Shown here: in pieces, positions 811 to 53,510 of the stretch
Position numbering within the stretch: position 1 is the first letter of the stretch
How the letters are laid out: the number at the start of each line of letters is the position of its first letter
NCBI RefSeq assembly: GCF_030684315.1
Contig: NC_081374.1
Span: forward strand, 34,508,630 to 34,572,629
DNA: 64,000 nt
Direction: 5' to 3'
From: Stegostoma tigrinum
Lineage: Eukaryota
Notes under the pieces: model-generated
Told to the model about the DNA's origin: nothing
The model's database searches: none
The model's input: the letters and a program-made list of their open reading frames with translations, nothing else
Translations under genes and position numbers: made by a program

Positions 811-945
811 GACAGAGACAATGGGAACTGCAGATGCTGGAGAATCCAAGACAACAAAATGTGAGGCTGGATGAACACAGCAGGCCAAGCAGCATCTCAG
901 GAGCACAAAAGCTGACGTTTTGGGCCTAGACCCTTCATCAGAGAG
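811..945 (-). mobile_element. ~135-bp PLE-derived monomer (family A) with hammerhead motif, 10-bp TSD
   Basis: Reverse complement matches the 3' end of the PLE at ~20952-21083. ATGTGTTTGA is duplicated at 801-810 and 946-955. The core reads CTGATGA...cccAAAAcgtc (G12>A). It is inserted in an older SINE remnant (~765-1000). Confidence 0.85.
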
Positions 946-1993: not shown

Positions 1994-2125
1994 AGTTCTG
2001 AGGAAGGGACACCGGACCCAAAACATTAACTGATTTTTTTCTTCACAGATACTGCCTGACCTGCTGAGCTTTTCTATCAACTTCTGTTTTTGTCCCTGAT
2101 TTACAGCACCCACAGTTCTTTTGCG
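1994..2125 (+). mobile_element. PLE-derived short element (family B) with decayed hammerhead motif
   Basis: agttCTGAGGAagggacaccggacccAAAAcattaact followed by cacagatactgcctgacctgctgagc...acagcacccacagttcttt; homologous to 32528-32662. Confidence 0.75.
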
Positions 2126-2546
2126 TTCTATTTTATGCGTGTATTTTTTGCGTAATGAATGTATTATTTTGTTAAACAACAATGGCAGCCTCATATGAAT
2201 ATGTTTCAGTCACTAAACATTATGGTAACCAACTGAAACAATAAAGTTATGATCTATCAAACCAGATTTCCCACTGGGATTTGACTTGCCCAGTGTTATC
2301 GTCAGCTAGGATCATTACATAAGTTACATGCCGTATTAGAGACCTCCGTACAATAAACAGCCACTGGACCTTTAGCAGCAAAACACAAACATTATTTTCA
2401 CAAGGTGAACTCAGGAGAGGAAATTTGTCTCGGACACCAATAAAATGCTTGCATTTCCTAATCCAATTAAATTGTAAATTAGTCAAGGTTTTGACTCTTC
2501 TAGAAATCAATTCTGGCCCTTTCTTTCTGATGAATGTTTTTCTCCC

Positions 2547-2690
2547 AAAAAGAAGTAAAATACTGCAGATGCCGGCAATCTGACATAAAAGAGGCAATTG
2601 CAGGAGAAACTGTGTAAGCCTGGCACATTCCTTGGAGAGAGAAAAACAGAGTTAATGTTTCAAGTCCAATGACAGTTTTTTTGGAATTTG
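2547..2690 (-). mobile_element. Degenerate family-B-like PLE terminal fragment
   Basis: atactgcagatgc...ggagagagaaaaacagagttaatgtttcaagtcc resembles the reverse complement of the family B copies. Confidence 0.5.
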
Positions 2691-7164: not shown

Positions 7165-7740
7165 TAGAATCACAGAGCTGTACAGCATGGAAACAGACCT
7201 TTCAGTCCAATTCACCCATGCCAACCAGATATCCTAAATTAATCTCCTCCCATTTGGCCCATGTCCCTCTAAACTTTTCCTGTTCATATACCCATCCAGA
7301 TGCCTTTTAAGTATTGTTATTGTACCAGCCTCCACCATTTCCTCTGGCAGCTCATTCCATGCATGCACCAACCTCTGCATGAAAAAGTTTCCCCTTAGGT
7401 CCCTTCTAAATCTTTCTCCTCTCATCTTCAAACTATGCCCTCTGTTTTGGACTCCCCCAGTCCCAGAAAAGACTTTGGCCATTCATCTTATCCATGCCCC
7501 TCAAGATTTTATAAACCTCAAAAAGATCACTCCTCAGCCTTCGACCCACCAGGGAAAATAGCCCCAGCCAATTGAGCCTCTCTCTAAGGCTCAAGCCTGG
7601 CAAAATTCTTGCAAATCTTTTCTGAACCCTTTCAAGTTTCACAGCATCCTTCCATATAGCAAGGAGAGCAGAATTGCACATAGTATTCCAAAAGTAGCCA
7701 AACCAATGTCCTGTACAACTGTGACATGACTCCCAACTCA
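7165..7740 (-). mobile_element. CR1 LINE 3' fragment (ORF2 C-terminus + 3' UTR)
   Basis: Minus-strand ORFs contain LERVQKRFARILPGL, RRLRSDLFEVYKILRG and RGHSLK...RGNFFMQRLVHAWNELPEEMVEA, typical of the CR1 ORF2 C-terminus. Confidence 0.9.
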
Positions 7741-8829: not shown

Positions 8830-9000
8830 GAGTCAGAGTTAATATTTTGGGCCCAGTGACTCTTCCTCAGACCCTTCCTAATCACTGAACTGAAATGTTA
8901 ACTCTGATTTCTCTTCACAGATACTGCCAGGCCTGACAAACTTTTCTAGCTTTTTTTGTTTTTGTTCCTGATTTCCAGCATCCACAGGTCTTTTGGTTTC
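8830..9000. mobile_element. Partial fold-back family-B PLE element
   Basis: cagagttaatattttgggcccagtgactcttcctcagac (minus-strand decayed hammerhead) followed by + strand gaaatgttaactctgatttctcttcacagat...ccagcatccacagg. Confidence 0.65.
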
Positions 9001-9047
9001 TATAAGTTAAAGAGGATTGTATCCAGTACAAAGGAAGATACAATACT

Positions 9048-16695: not shown

Positions 16696-16988
16696 TGAAA
16701 ACAAGCCACAGTAAGGGAATAGCAAGACGGACGATGCTGTTTTCAGTACCTGCACTGCGTTGGTCTGAAAGAAGTTGCTCAAAAAGCCGCACTCATTTCT
16801 CCAAGCGCCCAAATACAGCTTCCACTCAGCCTGACTAATGTCCTTGCTTTAACACTGGCTGAAGGACATATCCCTTTACTGATGTTTCCAACCTGAAGCT
16901 GCACACAAGGAAAGCGCTCCCCTAGCTCGCACAAGGTGTGTATAAGGGGGAAGCCATGCTGCAAGGTTGGCGGGGTGGGAACATTTAC

Positions 16989-17350
16989 CTGGTTGGGATC
17001 CTGACCCGGAGGTAGCGGTCGATGGCGATGGCGAGAAGCGCAAGGATGGAGCTCTGGGTGAGAACCAGCACGGTACAGGAGAAGAGCAGGCAGCTGTAGA
17101 AGTGAGTGTGGAGCCCGATACTAATGGTGATGGCCAGGGGGATGACCAGGGAACCCACGGCGATATCAGCCAGCGCCAGCGAGACGATGAAGCTGAAGGT
17201 GGTGTCTCGAAGGGCACGGTTGATCCTGACCGCCCAGCAGACCAGCACATTGCCCAGCACCGAGGCTACAGCGATCAGCACCTCCACACCGATGTAGATA
17301 ACTAGGGAAGGGGTGATAGTGACTGCTTCACTCTCCCCGGGAGCAGGCAT
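16989..17350 (-). CDS. Adenosine receptor (A1/A3-type GPCR), first coding exon (N-terminus, TM1-TM3, DRY)
   Basis: Translation MPAPGE...[23 protein letters not shown]...[13 protein letters not shown]...HFYSCL...[25 protein letters not shown]. The exon ends at a phase-2 donor AG|GTAAAT (GT at 16988-16987), the conserved intron position just after DRY in adenosine receptor genes. ADORA1 vs ADORA3 is not resolved. Confidence 0.95.
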
Positions 17351-17390
17351 CCTGAATCCGCCCAGCTAGAGCTGTCCCGCCTGCACTCCC

Positions 17391-17420: not shown

Positions 17421-18297
17421 TGGGCCAGCCGCTGGATTCTTTCCCTACCTCTTCACTGCCGCTTCTCTCCGGGAAGGCAGCTAGACGCTGCTCCTGCTTC
17501 ACTGCCGGCCAGCTGTGTGTCTCCGTCACCCAGTCTCCCCCAAAACTGCCGACCACCCCGCCCCCCCCCCCCCCCCCCACCCTCCTGGACGTTAGCAAAA
17601 GAAATGTCTCCCCTCTTTCAGCGCACCTTTCCAATTCCAGTGATCTATTCGGAGCTCAACCCAGTGTCTGCAAGCAGCAGCTCCCGTCCAAACGCACGGT
17701 GCTGCAGGTATTCAGCAAGGGTGGCCAGCATCTGTCTGGAAGGATAAAGCGCTAACCCACCAGGTCGATGACCTTTCCTTTAGAACTGCGTGTCCTTCCG
17801 AGCCCAGCTCAATCCTGGCTCTCCCTTTTCACAGCTTGTGTGTGTTTCTCTGCTGATGTGCTGCTCTGTCTGAGGGTGTGAGTTCCTGCCTTTGTAAGCC
17901 TCTGTGTGTTTGCTCTCCATGTGGTTTGTGAGTTCATTTTACAGGGGCCTGTGGTGGGGGGAGGGGGTGTGTGTAATTGGAGTGGGAGGCGGTGTCTGAA
18001 CAGGTTTGGTAAAGTTGCTGAGTGTATTTCTATCTGCCTGGAGTGTGTGTGTGTGTGGTTCTGTTTGCGAGTGCTTCACTTCTAATGCTCCCTATGTGCG
18101 TGTGTTTGTTTGGGCAGTGGGGGGGTGGGGGGGGGGAGAGGCTTCGCGTCTTTGGTTTCCCAGTGTCTCTGCGGTGATTTAAAGCGTACACTTCGCTCCC
18201 AGCAGCCAGATAAGGTACAGTGCCTGGGAGGAAAGGATCTGTCCGCTTCCAAATCACCGCATTCTTCAGAAGCAGCAACAATCTACAGCCTAGAATT

Positions 18298-18383
18298 TTT
18301 CTGAAGAAGGGTCCGGACCCGAAATGTCAGCTTCCCTGCTCCTCTGATGCTGCCTGACCTGCTGTGCTCATCCAGCTCACACT
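18298..18383 (+). mobile_element. PLE terminal fragment (family A variant) with hammerhead motif, no tail
   Basis: ttCTGAAGAagggtccggacccGAAAtGTCagcttccctgctcctctgatgctgcc...ccagctcacact. Confidence 0.75.
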
Positions 18384-18663
18384 TAGCCTAAAACCAGTCT
18401 GGATCGGGGCTCATGATCAGAAACGCACGTCCCACGTTGGATTAAGTAGGAATGTAAATTTAACAATGTACATGTGTTCGGCTGTGGTAAAGTTATACGG
18501 ACAGCTGAAATTTATTGTATTTGTAGCCAAATCTAAAAACCTGTTTCCACTGCCATTTATTTATTGATGGAAATGGATAGAGAATGCAACATTCTCTTTA
18601 CAAAAGTTAATCACTCTATAAATAAATGATTTATAGTTGGAAAGGATACAATAGAAACACTAG

Positions 18664-18696: not shown

Positions 18697-19150
18697 AATA
18701 GAGACACCAGTCCTTGTTTCATTTCGACTCAAGAACTGGGACTGTACCATGGTTATATTAAAAAAGGAACATGAACCGCGTTGCTGCGTTAATTGTCAGT
18801 ATTTCGATCTAAGTCAATGATGGAGCCGCGACATGCAATAGGGTTTGAACGGCCGAGATTGATAATCCCTCAATCCATTAGTTACAAATCTTTTAATGTA
18901 AACCAGATGTCAAGGAACACGCAGCGAGACAGCAAAGAGAGAAAGAAAGTCCCCCAAGAATGAGCCACCTCATTCTAATTGTTCATTCATGCTTGGTGAC
19001 CTGAGAAAGAGGAATTTCTTATCAATGGCACGGCAATGCAGCAGAGGGAGCTATTCAGGGACTGAAAGCCGACCAACTGCACAACCAAGATAATAAAATG
19101 TGAGGCTGGATGAACACAGCAGGCCAAGCAGCATCTCAGGAGCATAAAAG

Positions 19151-19182
19151 CTGACGTTTCGGGCCTAGACCCTTCATCAGAG
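19151..19182 (-). ncRNA. Minimal type-I hammerhead ribozyme motif (intact core)
   Basis: Minus strand: cu-CUGAUGA-A-GGGucuaggCCC-GAAAC-GUC^ag. Helix III is reduced to the palindromic ACGU. Confidence 0.8.
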
Positions 19183-19708
19183 AGGGGGATGGGGGGAGGG
19201 AACTGGAATAAATAGGGAGAGAGGGGGAGGCGGACCGAAGATGGAGAGAAAAGAAGATAGGTGGGGAGGGTGTAGGTGGGGAGGTAGGGAGGGGATAGGT
19301 CAGTCCAGGGAAGACGGACAGGTCAAGGAGGTGGGATGAGGTTAGTAGGTAGCGGGGGGTGCGGCTTGGGGTGGGAGGAAGGGATGGGTGAGAGGAAGAA
19401 CCTGTTAGGGAGGCAGAGACAGGTTGGACTGGTTTTGGGATGCAGTGGGTGGGGGGGAAGAGCTGGGCTGGTTGTGTGGTGCAGTGGGGGGAGGGGATGA
19501 ACTGGGCTGGTTTAGGGATGCAGTAGGGGAAGGGGAGATTTTGAAACTGGTGAAGTCCACATTGATACCATATGGCTGCAGGGTTCCCAGGCGGAATATG
19601 AGTTGCTGTTCCTGCAACCTTCGGGTGGCATCATTGTGGCAGTGCAGGAGGCCCATGATGGACATGTCATCAAGAGAATGGGAGGGGGAGTGGAAATGGT
19701 TTGCGACT

Positions 19709-20731
19709 TGTGTCCATTTCAAGCCCACCGACTCCCACAGCTACCTAGAATACACCTCCTCCCACCCACCCTCCTGCAAAAATTCCATCCCCTATTCCCA
19801 ATTCCTCTGCCTCCGCCGCATCTGCTCCCACGATAAGACATTCCACTCCCGCACATCCCAGATGTCCAAGTTCTTTAAGGACCGCAACTTTCCCCCCACG
19901 GTGATCGAGAACGCCCTTGACCGCGCCTCCCGCATTTCCCGCGACACATCCCTCACACCCCGCCCCCGCCACAACCGCCCCAAGAGGATCCCCCTCGTTC
20001 TCACACACCACCCTACCAACCTCCGGATACAACGCATTATCCTCCGACACTTCCGCCATTTACAATCCGACCCCACCACCCAAGACATTTTTCCATCCCC
20101 TCCCCTGTCTGCTTTCCGGAGAGACCACTCTCTCCGTGACTCCCTTGTTCGCTCCACGCTGCCCTCCAACCCCACCACACCCGGCACCTTCCCCTGCAAC
20201 CGCAGGAAATGCTACACTTGTCCCCACACCTCCTCCCTCACCCCCATCCCAGGCCCCAAGATGACATTCCACATCAAGCAGAGGTTCACCTGCACATCTG
20301 CCAATGTGGTATACTTCATCCACTGTACCCGGTGTGGCTTCCTCTACATTGGGGAAACCAAGCGGAGGCTTGGGGACCGCTTTGCAGAACACCTCCGCTC
20401 AGTTCGTAACAAACAACTGCACCTCCCAGTCGCAAACCATTTCCACTCCCCCTCCCATTCTCTTGATGACATGTCCATCATGGGCCTCCTGCACTGCCAC
20501 AATGATGCCACCCGAAGGTTGCAGGAACAGCAACTCATATTCCGCCTGGGAACCCTGCAGCCATATGGTATCAATGTGGACTTCACCAGTTTCAAAATCT
20601 CCCCTTCCCCTACTGCATCCCTAAACCAGCCCAGTTCATCCCCTCCCCCCACTGCACCACACAACCAGCCCAGCTCTTCCCCCCCACCCACTGCATCCCA
20701 AAACCAGTCCAACCTGTCTCTGCCTCCCTAA
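19709..20731 (+). pseudogene. Truncated PLE ORF: RT C-terminal/thumb region, Cys linker and GIY-YIG endonuclease
   Basis: KPTDSHSYLEYTSSHP...IPYSQFLCLRRICS (PLE RT C-terminus), CNRRKCYTC (Cys linker), NVVYFIHCTRCGFLYIGETKRRLGDRFAEH (GIY-YIG with CxxC) and LGTLQPYGIN. The frame is open but the RT catalytic core is missing. Confidence 0.92.
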
Positions 20732-20953
20732 CCGGTTCTTCCTCTCACCCATCCCTTCCTCCCACCCCAAGCCGCACCCCCCGCTACCTACTAACCTCAT
20801 CCCACCTCCTTGACCTGTCCGTCTTCCCTGGACTGACCTATCCCCTCCCTACCTCCCCACCTACACACTCTCCACCTATCTTCTTTACTCTCCATCTTCG
20901 GTCCGCCTCCCCCTCTCTCCCTATTTATTCCAGTTCCCTCCCCCCATCCCCCT

Positions 20954-20985
20954 CTCTGATGAAGGGTCTAGGCCCGAAATGTCAG
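20954..20985 (+). ncRNA. Hammerhead motif with a C>T change in helix III (GAAAUGUC)
   Basis: ctCTGATGAagggtctaggcccGAAAtGTCag. Confidence 0.65.
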
Positions 20986-21092
20986 CTTTTGTGCTCCTGA
21001 GATGCTGCTTGGCCTGCTGTGTTCACCCAGCCTCACATTTTATTATCTTGGAATCTCCAGCATCTGCAGTTCCCATTATCTCTCAACTGCAC

Positions 21093-21520
21093 AACCAGCC
21101 CAGCTCTTCCCCTCCACCCACTGCATCCCAAAACCAGCCCAGCCTGTCTCTGCCTCCCTAACCGGTTCTTCCTCTCACCCATCCCTTCCTCCCACCTCAA
21201 GCCGCACCTCCATCTCCTACCTACTAACCTCATCCGACCTCCTTGACCTGTCTGTCTTCCCTGGACTGACCTATCCCCTCCCTACCTCCCCACCTATACT
21301 CTCTCCACCTATTTTCTTTACTCCCCATCTTCGGTCCGCCTCCCCCTCTCTCCCTATTTATTCCAGTTCCCTCTCCCCATCCCCGTCTCTGACGAAGGGT
21401 CTAGGCCCGAAACGTCAGCTTTTGTGCTCCTGAGATGCTGCTGGGCCTGCTGTGTTCATCCAGCCTCACATTTTATTATCTTGGATTCTCCAGCATCTGC
21501 TGTTCCCGTTATCACTGACA
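21093..21520 (+). mobile_element. Second, 5'-truncated PLE pseudo-LTR in tandem with the large copy
   Basis: Direct repeat of ~20663-21083 with several substitutions. CAACTGCAC recurs at 21521-21529, a candidate TSD of this earlier insertion. Confidence 0.88.
21387..21418 (+). ncRNA. Minimal type-I hammerhead ribozyme motif (intact core)
   Basis: ctCTGACGAagggtctaggcccGAAACGTCag. Confidence 0.8.
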
Positions 21521-21653
21521 CAACTGCACCATTCAGCTCCTTTGTAACTTCAGCGGATACACTAAGCGGAAAGAGAACACCGACAAAAAATGCTGAAAAA
21601 ACCCTGGCAGCGTCTGTGGAGAGAGAGCGAGAGAGAGAGGGATCAGGGATGCC

Positions 21654-21730
21654 AGAGACAATTGGAACTGCAGATGCTGGAGAATCTGGGATAACAAAGT
21701 GTGGAGCTGGATGAACACAGCCTAAGATGC
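21654..21730 (-). mobile_element. Short PLE 3'-end insertion with imperfect 13-bp TSD
   Basis: Tail plus part of the arm, between GATCAGGGATGCC (21641-21653) and GATCAGACATGCC (21731-21743). Confidence 0.7.
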
Positions 21731-22705: not shown

Positions 22706-22816
22706 TAAATCTGCATGATAGTGTGAGACTCACAGCGTTTTTAAAAATATCTCCACGGCTGCCGTATGCTCCCAAAGGCAGGGCCTGCACGCACACGCAT
22801 GGTGGTTCTGTATATA

Positions 22817-22900
22817 GATAACACAGTGTGGAGCTAGAGGAACACAGCAAGTCAGGCAGCATCAGAGAGGCAGGAAAGCTGACGTTTCAGGTATTTCTGA
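22817..22900 (-). mobile_element. Collapsed PLE remnant (partial tail-less arm) with ~13-bp TSD
   Basis: GGTTCTGTATATA (22804-22816) and GGTTCTGTATGTA (22901-22913) flank agataacacagtgtggagc...gctgacgtttcagg. Confidence 0.7.
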
Positions 22901-23629: not shown

Positions 23630-23858
23630 AGATAACAAAGTGTGAAGCTGGATGAACACAGCAGGCCAAGCAGCATCTTAGGAGTACAAAAACTGACATT
23701 TCGGGCCTAGACCCTTCATCAGAGAGCTCTCTGATGAACGGTCTAGGCCCAAAACGTCAGCTTTTGTGCACCTAAGATGCTGCTTGGCCGGCTGTGTTCA
23801 TCCAGCTTCACACTTTGTTATCTTGGATTCTCCAGCAGCTGCAGTTCACATTATCCCG
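23630..23858 (+). mobile_element. Fold-back (palindromic) PLE mini-element, 97-bp arms + 35-bp tail, 11-bp TSD
   Basis: 23630-23726 and 23727-23823 are inverted with no spacer (centre gagctc). GTTAGAACTCT occurs at 23619-23629 and 23859-23869. A hammerhead motif is present on each strand, both with point changes. Confidence 0.92.
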
Positions 23859-28262: not shown

Positions 28263-28478
28263 CATCAGTGATAATGTGAGCTGCAGATGCTGGAGAATCC
28301 AAGATAACAAAGTGTGAAGCTGGATGAACACAGCAGGCCAAGCAGCATCTCAGGAGCACAAAAACTGACGTTTCGGGCCTAGAGCTCTCTGATGAAGGGT
28401 CTAGGCCCGAAACGTCAGCTTTTGTGCTCCTGAGATGCTGCTTGGCCTGCTGTGTTCATCCAGCTTCACACTTTGTTG
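28263..28478 (-). mobile_element. Fold-back PLE mini-element with perfect 14-bp TSD
   Basis: TATAAATAACATAG at 28249-28262 and 28479-28492. The tail is on the left. The left arm lacks ~14 nt next to the agctct centre. Confidence 0.92.
28387..28418 (+). ncRNA. Minimal type-I hammerhead ribozyme motif (intact core)
   Basis: ctCTGATGAagggtctaggcccGAAACGTCag. Confidence 0.8.
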
Positions 28479-31125: not shown

Positions 31126-31536
31126 CGCCTCCCTAGCCTGTTCTTCCTCTCACCTATCGCCTCCTCCCACCTCAAGCCACACCCCCATTTCCTTCCTACT
31201 AATCTCATCCCGCCCTCTTGACCTGTCCATCCTCCCCGGACTGACCTATCCCCTCCCTACCTCCCCACCTACACTCACCTCTGCTGGCTCCATCCCCGCC
31301 TCTTTAGCTTGTCTGTCTCCTCTTCACCTATCCTCTCCACTATCCATCTTCGATCCGCCTCCCCCTCTTTCCATATTTATTTCAGAATTCTCTCCTCATC
31401 CCACTTTTCTGATGAAGGGTCTAGGGCCAAAACGTCAGCTTTTGTGCTCTTAAGATGCTGCTTGGCCTGCCGTGTTCATCCAGCTCTACACTTCGTTATC
31501 TCGGATTCTCCAGATCTGCAGTTCCCATTATCTCTA
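31126..31536 (+). mobile_element. 5'-truncated PLE pseudo-LTR (family A) with decayed hammerhead
   Basis: Homologous to 20720-21083; CTGATGAagggtctagggccAAAAcgtc; ends in cagttcccattatctct. Confidence 0.85.
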
Positions 31537-32527
31537 GGATAAAACTTGTACATGGCTGATTTACTGGGAAACAATTTGTTGACATTAATTTCCAGGTGTA
31601 TGCTTGTACAGTTAAATCCCAAAATGAGTTAATATATTGTTGAAAGGCAAACGAAAAGAACAGATAATAAATTAACAACCACCAAAGGGTTGAATATAAT
31701 TAACATATAACTCTCTCAAGTTAAAATGCATATAATTTCATTCAGTTTAACATTGAATAGAAAATTCACAGAATAGCACTTCATCTTCAAAATACAAGGT
31801 TAAAATATTTATTGATTTCAGTTGGAGTGTGATTGTAAAAGGTACTTGACCCAAACAAATCTGCCAGAGACCAAATTAATTTAATAAATGTGTGCTTTGA
31901 TAGATTTCATGGCAAAATGAAAATAATACAAATGGCACTAAAAGCACAAAATATGACTCCATTAAAATGCTTGGGGAAAAGAACAGCTGCTATTAGGATC
32001 AGGCAAAAGTGCGCCAATTATAATTCCTGAGAAGGAATAATGAGGTTATCATGTGATGAAATAAGGCAGAGCAGGAGCCATATTTAGAATGCATACTACT
32101 TTATTTACATTTGGAAAAAAAGAAACATTCTAAATTGCAACAGGCAAAATGTGGAGAACCAAGGTAAGAAGTTCAATTCATCTCCAAATGAATAAATTCA
32201 CAATATATTAAAATACTAAAGTCAATTTTGTCAATCACAAATGAACCATGAGTAAATGTAATTTTTGTAAGATGGCTCTGTGTCAATGTGACTCAGCATT
32301 AAATATGTGAAGACAACTAATCAAATTCAAACACCTTCTATCGAGCTAACTAGTTCGAATTATGCAATGCACTGCTCCCTGGTTCAAAAGGTAAGAGAGA
32401 GAGCAGAGTATCATCTTTTCTTTATGTTGATTGATGACATTTCCAAAGCTTGTCGAGTTAGGTATAGCTGCTCTTACACTGAAAGCAGAGAAATGAGGTC
32501 CTGAGGCCAAGTAGGTTATCTTTCATA

Positions 32528-32662
32528 AAGACCAAAAGAACTGCGGATGCTGTAAATCAGGAACAGAAACAAAGTTGCTGGTAAAGCTCAGCAGGTCTGG
32601 CAGCATCTGTGAAGGAGAAAACAGAGTTAATGTTTTGGGTCTGGTGACCCTTCCTCGGAACT
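32528..32662 (-). mobile_element. 135-bp family-B PLE monomer with perfect 14-bp TSD
   Basis: GGTTATCTTTCATA at 32514-32527 and 32663-32676. The minus strand begins agttCCGAGGAagggtcaccagacccAAAAcattaact. Confidence 0.88.
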
Positions 32663-33169
32663 GGTTATCTTTCATATATCTATTCTACGTATACCTGAGA
32701 AGGCAAACCATTTTTTTTTGTGGTACCATTCTGGGACAGCGTGTAAAAGTCCACAAGAGCTGGGCACACTCCACAAGACCAAACCTGTGACTTTTTAACT
32801 GTATGCAGTGCATCTCTGCCAATGACAACAACCCCATCCATAAAAGTGGAGAAGGTAGAATTAAAAATAAATATTTGTATTAAATACTGGTTTATGATTT
32901 ATTACTCATTACTAGATTTTGTTTAACTGGGCCTCCATTTTGCATATTAATTCTTAACCACAGCTGCCTTTGATGCCGAAGTTCACTGTAAGGTAAGGAT
33001 GGCAATTCCAAGTATGCAGTGTAATTGAGATCAGGAAGTGATGTTTGCGAAGGACTGACTAGTGCGCATACAATGGCCTCTAAATGTTTTGGTCTCACAT
33101 TATCACCCTATCAATGTGGCATCTGGCATGATTATTCACTGTTGACAATTCCGTGAGATGTAAGTTTTT

Positions 33170-34204: not shown

Positions 34205-35205
34205 TTAGAGTCACTGAGGTGGGCAGCACGGAAATAGATCCTTTGGTCTATCTCGACAATGCCAACCAGATGTCCTATATAAATCTAGTGCCATTTGCCT
34301 GCATTTGGCCCATCTCCCTCTATACCCTTCCAATTCGTATACCCATCCAGATGCATTTTAAATGTTGTTATTGTACCAGTCTCCTCTACCTCTGGCAGCT
34401 CATTCCATAACACACCACTCTCTGCATGAAACAGTTGCCCCTTAGGTCCCTTTTATATCTTGACCTTCACCTTAAACCTATGCTCTCTAGTTTTGGACTC
34501 CCCTAGCCTGGGAAAAGACCTTGCCTATTCACCCAATCAATGCCTGTCATGATTTTATAAACCTCTATAAGGTCACCTCTTAGCTTCTGATGCTTCAGGA
34601 AAAATAACCCTAGCTTCTCCTTAAATCTCAAACCCTCCAACTCTGGCAACACCTTTGTAAATTTTTTCTGAACCCTTTCTAGTTTCACTATGTCCTTCCT
34701 ATAGTCCTGTACAGCCACAACATGACCTTCCAACTCTGATACTCGACACACTGACCAATAAAGGCAAGTGTACCAAACACCTGCTTCACTATCCTGTCTA
34801 CCTGTGACACCACTTTCAAGGAACTATGAATCTGCACTCCAAGGTTACTTTGTTCAATGACACTCCCTAGAATCTTACCATTAAGTATATAACTCCTGCC
34901 TTTCCAAAATGTAGCACCTCACATTTATCTAAATTAAACTCCATCTGCCACCCATTGGCCCATCTGATCAAGATCCTGTTGTACTCTGACGTAAGCTTTT
35001 TTGCAGTCCAGTACACCTCAATTTTAGTGCCATCTGCAAACTTACTAACCATATCTCCTTTGTTCACATCCGAATCATTTATATAAAATGACAAAAAGCA
35101 GTGCACCCAGAACCGAACCTTGTAGCACACCATTGGTCATAGGCCTCCAATCTGAAAAGCCATCCCCCACCACCCTCTGTCTTCTACCTTTGGGCCAGTT
35201 CTGTA
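34205..35205 (-). mobile_element. CR1 LINE 3' fragment (RT C-terminus, frameshifted)
   Basis: Minus-strand peptides SKFADGTKI, WQMEFNLDKCEVLHFG, LERVQKKFTKVLPEL and LRGDLIEVYKIM. Confidence 0.9.
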
Positions 35206-36330: not shown

Positions 36331-36780
36331 CAACATTGCTTATATTCATGGCGAGGAACTGGTTGGAAAAGTCAATAATTCAATTCTACATGATGTTGTG
36401 CAACAGTGGAAGATGACATTGTAAAACCTTCAATATTTATGTCAAGAAAGAGCTTGGGAAGCTCAATAGGATCCCCAATCATTGTGTTTTGTTGGTTTTA
36501 GAGCAGGATTGAGATTTAACTGCCCAGAGAAGAAGAGTTTTGTTTAATTATAGCATGTTTGCTTGTAAGTTTTAAAAAAAATGTTTGTTCAATCCCATTC
36601 TACCCCAGAAATATGGGCAGTTAGGACCCAGTGATCTCACAAGGCAAGGGAGGTCAAAAATAACCAAATAGCTTGTCAAGGCTGGACTTACCGAAGCCAC
36701 AGTAAACAAATTAAATGGGCCATATATCGTTTACTTTTGTTTCGTTGCACGCTTTTTATCTGGGCAGATTGATACCAAAT

Positions 36781-37000
36781 AAAACAAATGAAGAACTGTA
36801 AGGTGCTGGAAGTCAGAAACAAAAACTGAAATTATTGGAAAAACTCAGCAGGTTAGCAGCATCTGTGGAGAGAAAAACAAATTAACATTTCATCTCCAGT
36901 GACCCTTCGCTGTAAGGGGTCACTGGACCCGAAACGTTAACTCTGCTTTCTCTCCACAGATGCTTTTGGACCTACTCAGGTTCTAGCAATTTCTGTTTTT
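36781..37000 (-). mobile_element. Older fold-back family-B PLE mini-element
   Basis: cagcatctgtggagagaaa...ccagtgacccttc / gggtcactggacccGAAACGTTaactctgctttctctccacagatgc, inverted about ~36911; tail on the left. Confidence 0.8.
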
Positions 37001-38559
37001 CAATGTTGGCTGGATTGATAGCCTGGCAGAGGCTGGAAAGGTTTATTCCTCACCATGGGATCGTTCAGCACAGTCTCCGGCAATTGGGAGGGGAGTCGTA
37101 AACAAGTGCGATATCAATCCATGTTTTAAACAGTACGACCCTTAATAATAAATTAGTTTCTGTATCCACTCCAATCAAACTCTAAGCTGCATATTTAAGA
37201 AGTCCTAGTATTGTCACGAATGGGCTGGGAATCAAGAGAGAGGTGTAGTGCAGTGTGAGGATAAGTCATTTGCTCTGTGAGGGCTTCATTAAAGTATGTG
37301 AATGCAGTATCCCATGGAGGATACTAACATGTCATAAAATTATACTCACTTGCAGTGTAAGAGTTGGGAGCCTTTTTATGAAATTACCTCTAATGTGCCT
37401 GATTATAAAGAACATTCATAGAAATATAATCTTGTCAGTTACAGATTGGCTTTTTTTTCCTGAGGATTTCAGAGATACTGAATGATGAATGTACACTGTG
37501 ACATTTTAAGAACGCCTCCTCTAATTTACCCTTTCAAATGTACTTACCTTAGAATCTTGTATGAGTTGACTAAGGGTTTTTCCTGAATTGTAACATAATT
37601 GATGCTGCCATATTGCAGAGCTGGAACTGAAATGTTAAATGAACAGTTGGACTGTACAAAAATTAAATATGTCCAAGTCTTTGAAGGAAGGTTTCAAAAA
37701 ACTCTTCTGAAAGAGAATAAATCAGAAATGCGTTCTCCTCTGAAAGACTGTTAGATAGCCATCTGTAGCTCAGGTTGGAGGTTTTAAGCTAAAATTGATT
37801 GATTAAAATAGGTGGAAGTGATTGCCAAGCAAGATCACCATTTATCAAGTTCATCACAAAGTTATTCAATGGGTTTATCTTACAATTCTTTTCCAATGAA
37901 TAGCTGATTTCTTTACATTGTGAAAATTGCTGTATTTTATTAGTATTTTCTGAAGTCACAGCCAATAGTTTAAACTGTATTAACCACAAAGAAAATGCAT
38001 CACTTTTACTGTTTTCACGGCTTCACTACATAATTTTATTTTCACTTTATTTCACCACTCATGAAAATACTTATAAAACACTTGTTTTATATATGGACTG
38101 GTCTAGTTACTGATTAACTAAAAGAAAAAAAGGTAACAAAGAGAATAAATAATTCTCTTTTCTTGCAAATAAGCCTAATGAAAAATGTTGCTTTTTGTAT
38201 GACCTCTGAATTGTAGATGATTTTTAAATCAAATTATTAAGATTATTGTTCTGAGTAAGAAATGCACATTGATAACAACAGTTAATGAATTAACATAATT
38301 GTGAGCCTAATCGTATGAGGTTCTGCATTTAAATTCTATTTGGATGTCTCTTCCAGCAATTATGGCATGTCTCTACTCAAGCGTGACTATTTTCTGACTC
38401 TGGCAGGTGTCTGTAGAATCTGTTTCCACTATAGTATATTCTCTACTGTAAGGTAGCATATCTCTCTTTGGTACAGATTGATGCTGCTCTCTCCTCGAAG
38501 TCTATGACTCTTGATGTTGCTGCTACACCTTCGGTTACATTGCTGCGCCAATGGAAAAT

Positions 38560-41600: not shown

Positions 41601-43878
41601 TAGCTTCTTCTCTGCATCAAACTCACTACATTATCAGGGATTGAATCTCACACTGTGATCTACTTCAGAGTCTTCCTTGTGGAACTGCATGAACGCTGAG
41701 TTGCTATCATGATATGCAGAAGAAATGTGTTCAGGTCAGAAGGCTCATTCTGCGAAGTTAAATCTCTGCAAAATATGGACTCAATTTCCCCATCTGAAAT
41801 TCTAACCCCCTCCCACCTCTGCATCCCCAGCACCAACACAGCAACCCACTTGTGTTAATATATACCCCTATCTGCTGCCCTTCTTGATATTAGCTGATAC
41901 AGCAGAGACAAGGGTCAGATTTAACATTAATAGCACTCTGCTTAATAGCACTCTGACTAATCCCAATAACCACCAAGTAACTGGGGGAAATTGACCGGTG
42001 CTTAAAGACATTTTACCTTCTCTCCACCTAATTGCTATGTAATAGGATTCATAACCATTTTATTCAGTAAGTGAATGATTTTGATTGATCATCCATTGAA
42101 TTGGCTAACAATTTAGCGGATTGAAATATGTTCCTATGATTGACTCAACAATTTGCCAAACATCATAATATTAGTATTTCTTGGGGCTAATCATATCATG
42201 GCGCCTGCTCTGCTCAGGCAAGCTCATTGAACCACACAAGGGATTTCTGAGGATTTACTTTAAAGGGAAACAAAATGACAAGACAACTTTTAAAAATCCC
42301 TTCATCTTCCTTACATCATTGCATTTTGGCTCATTTTTTACAAAAATATTGTGTAAGTGAGAGGCAAAAATGATTACACCAGACTGTTTCAATGTTATGA
42401 CTTTTAACTATAATTACATTGATTCCAAAGAACCATATTGCAATATCAAAGCACTAAGATTACAGTGTGGCACCAATGCACATTTTTAGTAGTCAGGCAC
42501 ATGTCTGACAAGATTAGTTAAGGAGATAAAAGTTCAGAGTTTCCAGTGTTTTTGTTGTTAGTTTTGCTGTTATTACCATTATACATCTTAAGATTTGAGG
42601 TCATCATCATCTCCCCCCAGTGTCAGAACTGTCAGAAACAAAGTCCCTGATTTTAGTTAATTGATGTATTAATTTGCCAATGGCAAATATGTAAAAATGC
42701 CTCCTGGTAATTCATTGCTTTCTGTAGTTTGCTTCCCCTAAACAGGAGAGATCTGTATGTTGCCCCCTTTCTCCCACCTCTGGCTCAGTGGATATTAAGC
42801 ATTGGTGGGTGAATATGGTGAATGTAAACTCATACTTTGTTGCTATGGCCAAGCATGTCCAATTATCACTGTGGTCCACTACTTGAACAAATGCAAGAAT
42901 AAGCCTGTAATGTTAAATTCAGCTGGACAAAAACAGAAAGAGAATTTATTCAGCTTGTTGTAATGATAAGATCATAAAATTGTAAGAAATAGGAACAGGA
43001 GTAGGCCATTCAGCCCATCATGCCAGCACTGCTAGCCAGTGTAATTATTTCAGATTGCAAACTTAACCCCACTTTATCTGCCTGTCCTTCAAATTCCTTG
43101 CCTCCTTTATAGATTCAAAACATACTTCACCCAGCCTTGAATATATGCACGGATCCCATTTCCATTGATCTTTCTAGAAGAGAACTTTAAAGATTGTGGT
43201 CTGAAACTTACTATATTTTGGCTGTGGCAAGTTTATTGAGTTTCCCTGAGGGTATTTCTCCATGAGGTTCTTAATCTTCCTTGTTGTATGATCGCAAAAT
43301 TCACAGCATTAACTACTATCCATTAACTATAGCACCTCTCTAATCCACTGCTAGCTTAATTCTACTGCTCACCACAGCTGGAAAAACACACCACTCTTCA
43401 ATTATCTCAGAATAGACTGGCATCCCTGATAAATACTCTCCAAACACCCAGCCAATGGCTGGCATTCCAGAGTTTCCCTTCATCGGCACTGTAATGGCAC
43501 AGTAGCCCCAGACGCAAGCTGATCTCAGCACAAGGCTGACACTCCCTGGCGCATTCAGCTCCTTTTTCCTACCCCAGGCCTGATGTCCCAACAATACAGT
43601 TTACCTGGCTTTAGCTATATTCCATTTTTCATCAAGTCACAGTCACTCTGACCCCAGTGTCTGTGATACACCAGCATCTTATTGTTATCCAACAGGGACC
43701 AAGCATTCAGACAATTCCACAGATGATTCTTTTATTTATAGCCACCAAACATTAACGCAAACAAATTCAGTAAAGATTACCCCCCACACTGTAAACACAA
43801 TACTGCAATGGTGACCCGTCACTATTTTACAATCCACAATTGTTTGCTGCACGTAGCTTTCATCTACTGGAACCTAGT

Positions 43879-43984
43879 TCAGTTCTGAGGAAGGGTCACT
43901 GAACCCACAAAGTTAACTCTGATTTCTCTCCACTGATGCTGCCAGGCCTGCTCTGTCTTTCCAGCAATTTCTGTTTTTGTTTCC
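43879..43984 (+). mobile_element. Family-B PLE arm without tail, decayed hammerhead
   Basis: agttCTGAGGAagggtcactgaaccc...gttaactctgatttctctccac; flanked by the similar catctactggaacctagt and catctgctgaaacctggt (possible old TSD). Confidence 0.75.
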
Positions 43985-44367: not shown

Positions 44368-44848
44368 TCATAGAACAGTATAGCACAGTACAGGCCCTTC
44401 AGCCCACGATGTTATGCCAAACCTTTACCCTAATCCTAACGTCTATCTAATCTCCACCCTGACCTTATACTATCATCCATATGCCTACCTAGTAGCCACT
44501 TAAATGCCGTTAATGAGGCCAACTCCACATCCCGACCACTGAGTAAAGAACCTACTTTTGACGTCTGCCCTGTATCTGCCTTCACTCACTTTAAAACTAT
44601 CCCCCCTTGTAACAGCTACCTCCACCCTAGGAAAAAGTCTCTGGCTGTCTACTCTATCTATACCTCTGATCATTTTGTACACCTCTATCAAGTCACCTCT
44701 CATCTGTTGTCGTTCTCAAGAGAAAAGCCCTGGCTCTCTTAAACTTTCCTTGTAAGACCTTCCCTCCATTCCAGGCAGCATCCTGGTAAATCTCCTCTGC
44801 ACCTTTTCCAATGCTTCCACATTTTTCCTGTAATGAGGCGACCAGAAC
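44368..44848 (-). mobile_element. CR1 LINE 3' fragment
   Basis: MRGDLIEVYKMIRGIDRVDSQRLFPR...TRGDSFKV...FFTQ. Confidence 0.9.
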
Positions 44849-47760: not shown

Positions 47761-48654
47761 GAATTGTCAGATTACAAACTGAGTGACATGACCATTATAC
47801 CATCACCTCCCCTTGTCACCAGGTGAGATGGACGTTGACTCTTCTATCATGCTTCCAAAGGGAGCTAAACCATTCCCTGACCAAAGCAGAGATTACATCA
47901 TGTAGGAGCTGAGCCAGAGGGCATGGAAGGGACTTCTGTTGATTAACTGAGAAGGTCAGAGTGGAGTTGCACTGTTGACTCTAGTTTATTTTCTGTTGTT
48001 TTGCCCATCCCAGATTATATGGATGGAGGGTGGATTGGTGACAATGGGGAGATTTGGGGATGAAAGATATGTTTACTGTGATGACATGGTGCAGGCATAA
48101 TGAGCAAGCAGGTTTATTTCTGCCCATCACGTTATACGCTGATGTAAAGCTGCAATGAGTATAAAATGATGTGCACAAATCAGTTTATTTACTAATGTAA
48201 ACCATTATGGGAGCTCTTTTTCTGGAGCATGGTATGAAGGAGATATTTAAAAAAAAGAGTTCTTCTTCCTCTGAAGTTTTTCACCACCAGCCATGCTGCA
48301 GGAAGGTGGTCAGAAGGATGATGGGGTGGCCATTTCTGTCCTAAACCAGTGGTTGCAAATAAATCCAAATCTCTGCTTTGCCAGTTGTGGAGCAAGTTCA
48401 AGGGTATGTCAATCACATGCTGTATACACATCCTAGCAGGTCTGAAAACTTATACCAAAGCATCTTTTTCTTTTCTTCTCTGTACAGCCCAAATTGTGAC
48501 TCTGCATCAAAACATACCAATTACTGAACTAATAGCACAGCTACGTGCTTCCTCTGAAAGCTATAGATGGCAAACAAGAACAAAAATCTCCTGTAATAAA
48601 CTGCAATAGAAATTACCTTCAACCTGTCAAACTTAGATAGTTCATTGTATTTTG

Positions 48655-48852
48655 AAAACAAAATGCTTGAGAAACTCAGCAGGTCTGGCTGCATCTGTGG
48701 AGAGAGAAACTGTTACTGTTTCGAGCCGAATATGACTTTTTTAGAACTGAAATACAGTCATGCTGGACTTGAAACATTAACTCTAATCTCACTCTACAGA
48801 TGCTGCCACATCTGCTGAGTTTCTCCAGCAATTTCTATTTTTACTTCAGATT
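48655..48852. mobile_element. Old fold-back family-B-like PLE mini-element
   Basis: gagaaactcagcaggtctggctgcatctgtggagagaga is inverted with ctctacagatgctgccacatctgctgagtttctc; the centre is decayed. Confidence 0.75.
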
Positions 48853-48973
48853 TGTAGTAGTTCACCTTAATCTGCTTTTGAAACCTGGCTTCTCAAACTG
48901 TGATCATTTATTTCTAGATTTTTGTCATGAAAGCATCAGGGAGGAAACCTGTAAAAGGAGCCATTACCACTAA

Positions 48974-49448
48974 GAGACAGCAAGAACATTTCAACGCCCC
49001 ACTTCCACTTGCTGAGCGACATGTCCATCCTGGGCCTCCTCCAGTGTCACAAAGACACCACCCACAAACTGGAGGAGCAACACCTCGTATTCCGCCTCAG
49101 AAGCTTACAACCCAATGGCCTAAACATGGAATTCACCAGTTTTAAAATCTCCCCACCCCCTGGCTTCAACTCATAATTAACCCTGCCTCCTTGACCTGAC
49201 ACAACCTGTCCACCTTCTCTCCCACCAATCCGCTCCTCCCAGCTAACTTACCAATCCCCATCACTCCCTACCTACACTCACCTATCACCATCTCACCTAT
49301 CTCCCCCAGCCCCACTCATCCTCTATTTATTCTGGAGCTTCCTTCCCCCTCCCCCATTTCTGATGAAGGGCCCAGACCCAAAACGTCAGCTTTCCTCTTC
49401 CTCCAAAGCTGCCTGGCCTGCTGTGTTTCTCCAGCTCCACACTGTGTT
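48974..49448 (+). mobile_element. Collapsed PLE insertion: inverted tail stub + tail-less arm with GIY-YIG C-terminal remnant; 15-bp TSD
   Basis: AGCCATTACCACTAA (48959-48973) and AGCCATTACCGCTAA (49449-49463). gacatgtccatcctgggcctcctccagtg is homologous to 20468. Hammerhead reads CTGATGAagggcccagacccAAAAcgtc. Confidence 0.8.
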
Positions 49449-50117
49449 AGCCATTACCGCTAATACTTGAGCTGTGAATATAAACCTTGTTTTCCAATTA
49501 GTATTGTGCAACTTATGCATGTTAACTTTGCTGACCCAGTGAAATTGCATTTCACTGAAATTGAATAAGTGAGCTGCCAGTACTAATTACCTCCTAATCA
49601 GCAGCTGAGCAATTCACAGGTCAGGAAATCTGTCCTCATGACGTAGGTAGGGCCCTGGGAGTGGACTTTAATTAAAGATAGCCTGCAGCCTTTTGAAAAG
49701 GAAGAACTGCATTTCAACAGTAGTCAATGGAGAGTGAGTTTGATAGTCAACAGGCAATGTGATATCATGCAGCGTCCCTGAAATCTCTCAAGCAGCCACA
49801 GACATATTGTTAGGGCAGATGATTGAGTTACTCTGAGTCGGTCCATTCCCCCCGTAACCTTGAATAGTTCTTGGGCATCTTGTTGAATTAGCCATTAGTC
49901 AGTTCCAAATCTCACAGAGCTAACTGCGCCGTTGAAGAAACTTAATAAACTGACATCTCTCAGGATGACTGGCAATGGCTAAATATGCATTCTTTAACCA
50001 GTAGAGTGCTAGTGTGAGAAAGCCAGCTGAATCACCCTATCTCAGCAGATGGCCAGCATGTGAATCAGCAGCTGGGCTGTCAGGCATGCAGTCCTTAAGA
50101 TAACTGCCCTTGAGCAT

Positions 50118-50935
50118 TCACAGAATCATAGAGTCATAGAGATATCCAGCACAAAAACAGACCCTTTGGTCCAACTCATCCGTGCCAACCATATATCCCA
50201 TATAAATCTGGTACCATTTGCCAGCATTTGGCCCATATCCCTCTAAACCCTTCCTATTCATACACTCATCCAGATGCCTTTTAAATGTAATTGTACCAGT
50301 CTTCACCACTTCCTCTGGCAGCTCATTCCATACATCAACCACCCTCTGCTTGAAAAAGTTGCCCCTCTCACCTTAAACCTATGCCCTCTAGTTTTGGAGT
50401 ACCCAAACTCAGAAAAAAGACTTTGTCTATTTACCCTATCTTTGCCCCTCAGGATTTTATAAACCTCTATTAGGTTTCCCCTCAGCCTCCAATGCTCTGG
50501 GGAAGATAGCCCCAGCCTATTCAGCCTCTCTATAGCTCAAAACCACCAACCCAGCAAAATCCTTGTAAATCTTATCTGAACCCTTTCTATTTACACAACA
50601 TCCTTCCTATAGGAGGGAGGCCAGAATTGCACGCAATACTCTCAAAGTGGTTAATCCAATGTCCCGTACAGTCGCAACATGACCTCCCGACTCCTATACT
50701 CGATACACTGGCCAATAAAGGCAAGCATACCAAACACCGTCTTCATATCCTAAACACGCGCGACTCCACTATCAAAGAACTATGAACCTGTACCCCAAGG
50801 TCTGTTTGTTCAACAACACTCCCAAAGATCTTACCATTAAATGTATAAGTCCTGCCCTGATTTGCCTTTTCAAAATGCAGCATCTCACGTTTATCTGAAT
50901 TAAACTGCATCTGCCACTCCTCGGCATTCCATAAA
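50118..50935 (-). mobile_element. CR1 LINE 3' fragment
   Basis: WQMQFNSDKREMLHFEKAN, DLGVQVHSSL and VWNELPEEVV...FKRHLD. Confidence 0.9.
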
Positions 50936-51729: not shown

Positions 51730-53510
51730 ATAGAATGTAGAACATTACAGCACAGTACAGGCCCTTCAGCCCTCGATGTTGTGCCGACCTGTCATACCAA
51801 TCTGAAGCCCATCTAACCTACACTATTCTGTGTACGTCCATATGCTTATCCAATGACGACTTAAATGTACTTAAAGTTGGCAAATCTACTACCATTGCAG
51901 GCAAAGAATTCCATTCCTTTACTACTCTCTCAGTAAAGAAACTACCTCTGACATCTGTCCTATATCTTTCACCCCTCAATTTAAAGCAATGCCCCCTCGT
52001 GCTCTCCGTCACCATCCTAGGAAAAAGGCTCTCCCTATCCACTCTATCTAACCCTCTGATTATTTTATATGTCATTAATTAAGTCACCTCTCAACCTTCT
52101 TCTCTCTAACGAAAACAGTCTGAAGTCCCTCAGCCTTTCCTCGTAAGACCTTCCCTCCATACCAGGCAACATCCCAGTAAATCTCCTCTGCACCCTCTCC
52201 AAATCTTCCACATCCTCCTTATAATGCGGTGACCAGAACTGTACGTAATACTCCAAGTGCAGAAGCACCAGAGCTTTGTATAGCTGCAGCATAACCTCTT
52301 GGTTCCAGAACTCGATCTCTCTATTAATAAAAACTAAAACACTGTATGCTTTCTTAACAGCCCTGTCAACCTGGGTGGCAACTTTCAAGGATCTGTGTAC
52401 ATGGACACAGAGATCTCTCTGCTCATCTACACGACCAAGAATCTTACCATTAGCCCTGTACTTTGCCTGGGTTACTCCTACCAAAGTGCATCACCTCACA
52501 CTTGTCCGCATTCAACTTCATTTGCCACCTCTCAGCCCAGCTCTGCAGCTTATCTATGTCTCTCTGCAACCTACAGCATCCTTCGTCACTATCCACAACT
52601 CCACCGACCTTAGTGTCGTCTGCAAATTTACTAACCCATCCTTCTACGCCCTCATCCAGGTCATTTATAAAAATGACAAACAGCAGTGGACCCAACACCG
52701 AGCCTTGTGGTACACCACTAGTAACTGGTCTCCAGGATGAACATTTCCCATCAACTACCACCCTCTGTCTTCTTTCAGCAAGCCAATTTCTGATCCAAAC
52801 TGCTATATCTCCCACAATCCCATTCCTCCGCATTTTGTACAATAGCCTACTGTGGGGAACCTTATCGAATGCCTTGCTGGAATCCATATACACCACATCA
52901 ACCGGTTTATTCTCATCTACCTGTTTGGTCACCTTCTCAAAGGACTCAATAAGGTTTGTGAGGCACGACCTACCCTTCACAAAACCGTGCAGACTATCCC
53001 TAATCAAATTATTCTTTTCTAGATGATTACAAATCCTATCTCTTATAACCTTTTCCAACACTTTACCAACAACTGAGGTAAGGCTCACTGGTCTATAATT
53101 ACTAAGGTTGTCTCTACTCCTCTTCTTGAACAGGGGAACCACATTTGCTATCCTCCAGTCATCTGGCACTATTCCTGTAGACAATGACGAGTTAAAGATC
53201 AATGCCAAAGGCTCGGCAATCTCCTCCCTGGCTTCCAAAAGGATCCTAGGATAAATCCCGGGGACTTACCTATCTTCACACTCTGTAGGATTTCTAAACC
53301 TCTTCCTTGTGAACCTCAATCCCACCAAGTCTAGTAACCTGTATCTCAGTATTCTCCTCGACAACATTGTCGTTTTCTAGAGTGAACACTGTCGAAAAAT
53401 ATTCATTTAGTGCTTCCCCTATCTCCTCTGATTCCACACACAACTTCCCGCTACTATCCTTGATTGGCCCTAACCTTACTTTCGTCATTCTTTTATTCCT
53501 TAAATACCTA
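51730..53510 (-). mobile_element. 5'-truncated CR1 LINE with the RT domain of ORF2 (frameshifted)
   Basis: [55 protein letters not shown] and KFADDTK. ORF2 is split over 53488-53294, 53238-52450, 52484-52065 and 52075-51818. Confidence 0.95.

Follow-up and report, generated by a model that had tools for sequence, protein, structure and literature searches.

Short insertions of a Penelope-like element in Stegostoma tigrinum share a 5' boundary at a fixed distance from the hammerhead core

Introduction

Endonuclease-bearing Penelope-like elements (EN+ PLEs) carry a pLTR, an inverted 5'-truncated copy and a tail of 30-40 bp, and also leave solo pLTRs (PMC8557442, PMC3846280, PMC2377424). In Adineta, palindromes at inverted junctions were reported along with solo pLTRs, and the palindromes were explained by self-priming on an antisense template (PMC3846280). 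What we attribute to these three sources, as well as to PMC4209133, PMC7229834, PMC4748587, PMC6765202, PMC6954239 and bioRxiv 10.64898/2026.07.22.740005, refers to the parts of them that were available.

The chemistry of insertion was described for a lizard PLE, the Poseidon element PAc of Anolis carolinensis. Its purified protein nicks and extends both target strands; reverse transcription begins at two internal RNA sites that define the tail, with uncleaved RNA as template (PMC11167929). This element requires RNA beyond its start sites, to +172 (PMC11167929). Minimal type-I hammerheads of metazoan PLEs were found mostly as single motifs, with some close opposite-strand pairs, and were taken as truncated PLEs; the available part of the source did not map the copy boundaries relative to the ribozyme (PMC4209133). 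In D. virilis Penelope transcription starts upstream of helix I, at a distance of 46 nt plus an intron of 75 nt (PMC2377424, PMC4209133). PLE-derived non-autonomous elements are known as well (bioRxiv 10.64898/2026.07.22.740005; MRC1 in PMC8557442).

Here we describe short PLE insertions (stubs) in 64,000 nucleotides of Stegostoma tigrinum (contig NC_081374.1, positions 34,508,630 to 34,572,629), a stretch that we call the window. The element behind them shares with EN+ PLEs the ORF with RT and GIY-YIG domains, the hammerhead in terminal repeats, head-to-head insertions, a tail on one arm and TSDs of 9-15 bp (PMC8557442, PMC3846280, PMC2377424). Its predicted hammerhead shares with the minimal motifs the core, the unpaired base before helix II, the short helix I and the palindromic bases that replace helix III (PMC4209133). 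While the 5' truncations of published EN+ PLEs are variable in the available descriptions, here most of the short copies, across several subfamilies, share one end 4 nt before the hammerhead core (position -4).

Results

The parent element

The unit of the stubs is the terminal pLTR segment of an EN+ PLE, which stands in its native place in the following arrangement.

19709-20587, plus strand: 5'-truncated PLE ORF with the RT C-terminal region, a Cys-rich linker and a GIY-YIG endonuclease
20588-20951, plus strand: C/T-rich PLE 3' UTR, preceding the hammerhead in read-through copies; 106 C in its last 200 nt
20952-21083, plus strand: terminal segment, forming the 3' end of the PLE; the C of the core is at 20956, the predicted cleavage site is 20983/20984, and the inner and outer ends are 21048 and 21083

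The GIY-YIG match in the ORF had an E-value of 4e-4, just under the Pfam cut-off. We found 103 longer homologues of the ORF at E<=1e-20, most of them with RVT_1, and the best named protein match was from Chiloscyllium punctatum (66% identity). The element may belong to the Neptune clade. The translation contains a three-cysteine linker. A Zn-finger-like or Cys linker between RT and EN was described for Neptune and Nematis (PMC8557442). The hammerhead core at 20956 lies 368 nt past the end of protein homology, and the last 200 nt of the 3' UTR hold 14 C-runs. Thus, the ORF with RT and, C-terminally, a GIY-YIG domain was seen, 5'-truncated, in a read-through copy (none for family B), the hammerhead is downstream of the ORF, and the insertion has a tail on one end, an inverted 5'-truncated partner and a TSD.

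Two monomers and their common boundary

A sequence-only reading of the window had drawn attention to two monomers, one from each of two families.

811-945, minus strand: family-A monomer, the PLE pLTR terminal segment, running from -4 of the hammerhead core as far as the outer 3' end, 3 nt past family position 132
801-810: first TSD copy of the family-A monomer, 10 bp, perfect
946-955: second TSD copy, adjoining the 5' end of the monomer
32528-32662, minus strand: family-B monomer; its first bases, AGTT, are the 5' strand of a 4-bp helix I
32514-32527: first TSD copy of the family-B monomer, 14 bp, perfect
32663-32676: second TSD copy, 14 bp

Both are indeed 135 bp long, with perfect TSDs of 10 bp (811-945) and 14 bp (32528-32662). 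In the same TSD search, where the two copies scored 10 and 14, none of 300 random 135-bp intervals scored 8 or more. The family-A copy is 94.7% identical to the segment at 20952-21083. The claim that both copies start just upstream of the CUGAnGA core was borne out: both begin exactly 4 nt before its C.

The same reading held that the two sequences differ substantially. They do represent two families, but with 89 identities in 141 alignment columns they are homologous, so that the two ends are homologous as well and not independent arrivals at one point. The alignment has 12 gap columns; therefore, the equal length of 135 bp is partly a coincidence. Placing the start at the 5' strand of helix I was exact for family B, whose helix has 4 bp, but family A starts 2 nt before a helix of 2 bp. 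Thus, what stays fixed is the spacing from the core. The four bases at the stop vary among copies (CTCT, TTTT, ATTT, AGTT). Within the terminal segment no long frame is conserved between A and B.

The window holds no family-B copy that carries upstream PLE sequence, so the PLE origin of this family rests on its homology to A. Pattern scans of viral and of prokaryote contigs for family-B upstream sequence gave 0 and 0 matches. We also noticed that at 32602-32620 (minus strand), as in other family-B copies, a pyrimidine tract, a CAG and an ATG resembling a strong splice acceptor follow just past the hammerhead; they are not conserved in families A and C.

As to the surroundings, a rhodopsin-family receptor, presumably adenosine A1-like, has its first coding exon at 16985-17365 (minus strand; 7tm_1 positions 1-91). 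Among window ORFs of at least 120 aa there was no second receptor exon, and the family-A monomer therefore probably lies in an intron of the receptor, in sense orientation.

Inventory of copies in the window

Besides the two named monomers, we scored the following stubs, palindromes and read-through copies.

1994-2128, plus strand: family-B monomer; start at -4; TSD not convincing
18296-18384, plus strand: monomer of family C (A-related), 89 bp; start at -5, end near the inner 3' site; 9-bp TSD with 1 mismatch
43876-43984, plus strand: family-B monomer; start at -4, end at the inner 3' site; 15-bp TSD with 2 mismatches
23630-23858: head-to-head palindrome with a perfect centre -4/-4; arms end at 97 and 132; one 11-bp TSD
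55405-55634: head-to-head palindrome with 2-3 nt between the arms at its -4 centre; arm ends 93 and 134; one 14-bp TSD (1 mismatch)
28263-28478: palindrome, one arm from -4, the other missing 14 nt at its start; arm ends 136 and 94; one 14-bp TSD
58715-58916: family-B palindrome with centre -3/-4; no TSD found in the search for one
48645-48857: older B-like palindrome, one arm from -4; weak 7-bp TSD
8832-9003: family-B palindrome with an eroded centre; 13-bp TSD with 2 mismatches
36777-37012: family-B palindrome with an eroded centre; 8-10-bp TSD
22814-22900, minus strand: family-C insertion; main arm of positions 22-97; 10-bp TSD
19088-21083: long inverted PLE insertion; arms end at 97 and 132; one 14-bp TSD; boundary passed by 524 and 1243 nt
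21090-21517, plus strand: second, tandem read-through copy; 5' end at about -299
31127-31536, plus strand: read-through family-A copy; 5' end at about -278
48987-49450, plus strand: read-through family-C copy extending to the ORF end
17690-17787, minus strand: old B-like stub starting with AGTT; TSD not found
2545-2687, minus strand: old B-like stub; start at about -4, boundary uncertain

The copies near 1994, 18298 and 43879 had been said to share the start of the two named monomers. They do start at -4 or -5, but the equal length does not extend to them all: the copy at 18296 has 89 bp and that at 43876 about 108 bp, with its first 5 nt duplicated at the 5' junction. The main arm of 22814-22900 is joined head-to-head to an inverted piece of 8 nt (22893-22900) that equals positions 1-8; the window contains this 8-mer 10 times.

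Seven short head-to-head palindromes are centred at or near -4, and a TSD around the whole palindrome was found in six of them (one of the six is weak); the centre is eroded in four of the seven (28263, 8832, 36777 and 48645). The two arms of an inverted insertion end differently: in each of the four that have long TSDs, one arm has its end at 93-97 and its partner at 132-136. Monomers and palindromes alike are thus single TSD-bounded insertions.

Several other structures were observed. In a short insertion at 21654-21730 (minus strand), positions 63-135 are joined to 9 inverted nt from positions 46-54, as in twin priming. Around the long inverted insertion and its tandem partner (19074-21530) the target-site motif is present three times. 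This motif matches the PLE's own 39-bp 3' UTR repeat, and the 5' junction of the second copy therefore looks microhomology-guided. The window also has a LINE-type RT fragment and related 3' pieces, which we take to be CR1/L2-like, at 52065-53265 (minus strand), 7165-7586, 34206-34900, 44586-44848 and 50129-50856.

Sharpness of the ends in the window and in public contigs

With an nhmmer profile built from 14 window copies, some of which are also in the search set, we found 32 pieces that cover 5% of the window. The first 4 model positions were reached by 21 pieces, and 11 started further inside; 16 of the 21 stop there, and the other 5 continue upstream into the PLE 3' UTR. In hand scoring, 15 of the 20 arms that reach -3 stop at -5 to -3, compared to 0.31 expected under a constant truncation rate. 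The arms of a palindrome are not independent, and we therefore also counted by insertion: 12 of 16 hand-scored insertions reaching the core stop at -5 to -3, and so do 7 of 9 among those with long TSDs.

We then aligned contigs of the public runs X1 (253,856 contigs), X5, X9 and X22 to the window sequence 20440-21089. The run results give the best-supported loose ends; the X1 counts are lower bounds, and likeness of 80% pools subfamilies. Among the six X1 loose ends listed, three have long, heterogeneous flanks like true insertion borders. The 5' end before 20955 was found in at least 732 contigs (agreement 0.37) and is the only 5' end with unique flanks among the ends listed. The two 3' ends lie behind 21048 (at least 667 contigs, agreement 0.38) and behind 21083 (at least 649, agreement 0.38), and this pair, about 35 nt apart, makes up the PLE 'tail'. 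The other three listed ends are short subfamily indels with agreement of 0.63-0.80. Run X5 had ends at the same three places, the 5' end in at least 10 contigs; the X9 list has no 5' end.

Summed depth rises across the boundary by factors of 2.9 (X1), 5.8 (X5) and 10.5 (X9), though such sums do not give copy numbers, and conservation is higher downstream. The bisulfite run X22 was unusable for this step: depth falls on one strand and rises on the other, and conversion loses reads depending on strand and base content.

Overall, 5' ends pile up at -5 to -3 both in the window and in the contigs, and 3' ends at two sites about 35 nt apart. Random 5' truncation is thus an inadequate account, as the sequence-only reading had argued; a smooth distribution of 5' ends, which it had named as the result that would speak against its view, was not seen in the public contigs.

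Head-to-tail joints led from 21048 to 20955 in at least 18 contigs and from 21083 to 20961 in at least 13. Tail-to-tail joints of 21046-48 with 21080-83 were also seen, in 23, 54, 33 and 47 contigs among the joints listed; they point to palindromic units in arrays or to more than one insertion into the same site.

A related element without the boundary

One metagenome scan returned 33 loci (L001-L033), of which 32 represent a PLE of the same protein group from another animal; locus L010, with a different hammerhead family, was left out. This PLE has up to 54% identity to the same homologues and a nearly identical hammerhead. It is a host-animal element inside metagenome assemblies and has tails and long inverted copies. 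Its upstream sequence is T-rich, not C-rich.

The 5' ends of this PLE are spread from -10 to beyond -700 (for example, L025 reads through to -462), and none of 22 distinct groups stops at -5 to -1; the groups include two arm pairs of single insertions and several copies cut by contig ends. The difference from the window family had a Fisher p of 7.5e-6, counting one as a stop, and of 1e-4 with TSD-anchored copies only. Since the hammerhead is the same and stops number 0 of 22, the fold alone does not make the stop.

The hammerhead motif and its fold

The motif was located in both named copies.

912-943, minus strand: minimal type-I hammerhead of the family-A monomer; helix I has 2 bp and helix II 4 bp, the core occupies 941-935, and the predicted cleavage site is between 914 and 913; layout as in PMC4209133
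32625-32662, minus strand: minimal hammerhead of the family-B monomer; core mutated at three places

In the family-A copy the G of GAAA is mutated to A. The core CUGAnGA/GAAA/NUH is intact in 3 of the 16 arms scored, neither named copy being among the three. The helices pair in 76% of cells compared to 17-47% in slid controls; covariation in them was no better than in shuffles. The Rfam search gave no hammerhead match and nothing at gathering; at E<=5 there were only hairpin look-alikes of a palindrome. The folds of the monomers are as stable as those of shuffles (z from -0.68 to 0.61), and no conserved fold was seen in the 3' part of the segment (consensus energy -0.62). The predicted pairing probability is 0.05-0.16 in the 40 nt 5' of the stop and 0.62-0.67 in the core.

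Some joints lead from 21083 exactly to 20984, the predicted cleavage site; they hint at ribozyme cleavage in vivo, something not observed with the lizard element.

Discussion

Proposed run-off at the 5' end of a template

On balance, though narrowly, we think that the stubs are run-off cDNAs: reverse transcription would start internally at two sites and run off a template that ends at -4. The model supposes an abundant template RNA whose 5' end lies 4-5 nt before the core. An RT primed at position 97 or 132 would copy the uncleaved hammerhead and drop off at the template end. A single cDNA joined to the far target end would give a monomer of 90-135 bp, and two cDNAs made at opposite nicks, one from each start site, and joined end to end would give a palindrome centred at -4. 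The long 5'-truncated copies would come from templates that have the 3' UTR ahead of the segment. The two-site, two-strand chemistry is that of the lizard Poseidon element, which belongs to a different clade from this PLE (PMC11167929).

Several structures look like marks of a template end: the 5-nt duplication at 43876, the 8-nt inverted piece at 22893-22900, and the joints from 21048 to 20955 and from 21083 to 20961. A template 5' end at -4 would account for both monomer lengths, the plan of the palindromes, the 43876 duplication, the 22893-22900 piece and the restart joints. The position of the palindrome centre shifts by 0-3 nt, and at the boundary of read-through copies there is no palindrome, so that fold-back on a templated stem is unavailable as an explanation.

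The template end may be a transcription start site in the pLTR or, somewhat less probably, the point where 5'-3' trimming halts at a folded or protein-bound domain. Family A starts on a C within a pyrimidine run and family B on the A of AGTT, both of which are initiator types described in PMC6954239, although pyrimidine-rich DNA fits initiator patterns easily. A TCT pattern matched three times within about 200 nt, once at 20952, which lends weak support. A DPE-like match between the GAAACGU core and the Penelope motif (PMC2377424) was considered and rejected: it fits the spacing in B and is 2 nt off in A. The D. virilis start is 121 nt further upstream and the L001-L033 PLE has no peak; therefore, the feature is not general.

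An extra G at the 5' junction, as in L1, is a copy of the cap. None was seen at 945, 32662, 1994, 18296 or 43881, which counts against the model.

The first cDNA of retroviruses, minus-strand strong-stop DNA, is likewise a short discrete product of run-off. By analogy, the PLE mRNA would start at -4 and end past the same segment in the 3' pLTR, being terminally redundant like a retroviral RNA with R. RT would start in the 5' copy, run off after about 95 or 130 nt and have to jump to the 3' copy to reach the ORF, and monomers and palindromes would be failed transfers. We regard this extension as unlikely, if worth stating. Retroviral strong-stop differs in its tRNA priming and integrase. The trypanosomatid L1Tc Pr77, where a ribozyme and an internal promoter share the 5' end of the RNA, is a functional analogy only (PMC4748587, PMC6765202); it differs in its HDV ribozyme and LINE machinery. 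No homology is claimed in either case.

Other explanations of the boundary

The closest competitor to run-off is arrest of RT on a longer template, at the ribozyme fold, at the edge of the C-rich 3' UTR or at a protein bound there. Families A and C have the start of the C-run at -4/-5, so that the C-rich tract begins at the same base, and a roadblock at this point is the main rival; the related PLE without a peak has T-rich upstream sequence, which agrees with such a role. Homopolymer stalling, however, should spread over the 14 C-runs. The fold itself, proposed in the sequence-only reading as the cause of the stop, fares worse. An RT travelling 3' to 5' runs into the fold near position 35-39 and has already unwound it by -4, so a stall would be predicted on the other side, where no 5' end is among the loose ends listed. 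For the enzyme, the observed stop comes only after the fold, and the template 5' of it is predicted to be unpaired. The monomer fold is also no stabler than that of shuffles, and the same hammerhead plan stops none of the 22 groups of the related PLE. We consider arrest, in all its forms, distinctly unlikely. Self-propagation of monomers as SINE-like units, transcribed from an internal promoter or by host read-through and serving as the main templates, would be compatible with run-off, and it draws on the great abundance of the stubs (32 pieces, 5% of the window) and on the lack of a family-B read-through copy in the window. A monomer would nevertheless be without the RNA beyond the start sites that the lizard PLE needs, it has neither a poly(A) nor a repeat tail, and no pol III A or B box within one mismatch of the consensus is present in either named copy. 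Stopped and read-through copies occur on both sides of the one supported split in a tree of 13 rows, nine of whose ten inner branches are open; the labels change 5 times, with at least 2 changes forced, and the two kinds showed no clustering compared to shuffles (500 of 500 as low). As the main cause of the boundary, a SINE-like lineage, also suggested by the sequence-only reading, is disfavoured by the missing boxes and, weakly, by the mixed copies of this mostly open tree, and we find it quite improbable.

The end might instead be cut, either by a nick of the PLE endonuclease at -4 or by self-cleavage of the hammerhead. The tail was ascribed to EN-mediated resolution (PMC8557442), and joints from 21083 fall exactly on the cleavage site at 20984 (2 of the 7 X1 joints listed with letters between), so that cleaved templates were probably used at times. 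Self-cleavage, though, would make copies start at position 33 (20984), a start that is absent from the X1 ends listed, whose lowest count is 319 compared to 732 at the boundary. A nick would have to accept stop bases that differ among copies, and those of family A misfit the ATT preference of the lizard enzyme (PMC11167929). A cut end appears very unlikely to us. It is hardly credible that the monomers are halves left by collapse of palindromic insertions, the third origin offered in the sequence-only reading. Sequence is lost at palindrome centres, as the erosion in four of the seven short palindromes indicates, but such erosion removes the centre, the very part that monomers keep. Both named monomers retain perfect TSDs abutting -4, the palindromes are themselves single TSD-bounded events, exact loss of one arm has no guiding microhomology, and the centring of palindromes at -4 would be left unexplained. 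Equally far-fetched is a splice acceptor at the boundary, on the model of D. virilis Penelope, where an intron ends at the 5' end of helix I (PMC4209133). Family B starts with AG, as this would have it, yet B keeps that AG, and no AG precedes -4 in A and C. The letters before 20955 share no sequence (agreement 0.37), which argues against a constant first exon.

Relation to described elements

With PAc this PLE would have in common two internal RT start sites, extension on both strands and uncleaved RNA as the main template. The ORF of PAc, however, begins inside the hammerhead, and the main text gives no fixed 5' stop (PMC11167929). For the junction palindromes, joining of two sense-templated cDNAs fits the data here at least as well as self-priming does.

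Non-LTR retrozymes are, like the stubs, short, non-coding, hammerhead-bearing and related to PLE pLTRs, and dispersed monomers of them are known (PMC7229834; bioRxiv 10.64898/2026.07.22.740005). They are described as head-to-tail tandems with canonical type-I ribozymes and circular RNA, while here we see dispersed monomers and palindromes with a minimal ribozyme. The named copies are single, and head-to-tail dimers are rare in the contigs (at least 18 and at least 13). Unlike the unit of those retrozymes in the available descriptions, a stub is not bounded by the cleavage site.

Solo and inverted pLTRs, junction palindromes, tails, single minimal hammerheads and PLE-derived retrozyme monomers have thus been published, as far as the available parts of the sources go (PMC3846280, PMC4209133, PMC7229834, bioRxiv 10.64898/2026.07.22.740005). 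In the literature covered, which was mostly open-access, neither a fixed 5' boundary at the hammerhead nor these shark stubs were found described; the supplement of the retrozyme preprint, for which one chondrichthyan was sampled, may list such repeats. The stubs are a real, sharply defined variant of PLE insertion and not a new class of element.

Implications

In annotation, the stubs matter because they make up 5% of the window and resemble SINEs or miRNA hairpins. Models of the PLE cycle have to account for pLTRs, inverted ends and tails and for the role of the hammerhead. Here a sharp 5' boundary, set at a constant spacing from the ribozyme, together with two fixed 3' ends, pins both ends of the cDNA intermediate. 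If the strong-stop reading is true, it would supply a mechanism for the regeneration of pLTRs and tandems, which was called unknown in PMC2377424, and the intermediate would be preserved in sharks as a very large fossil record.
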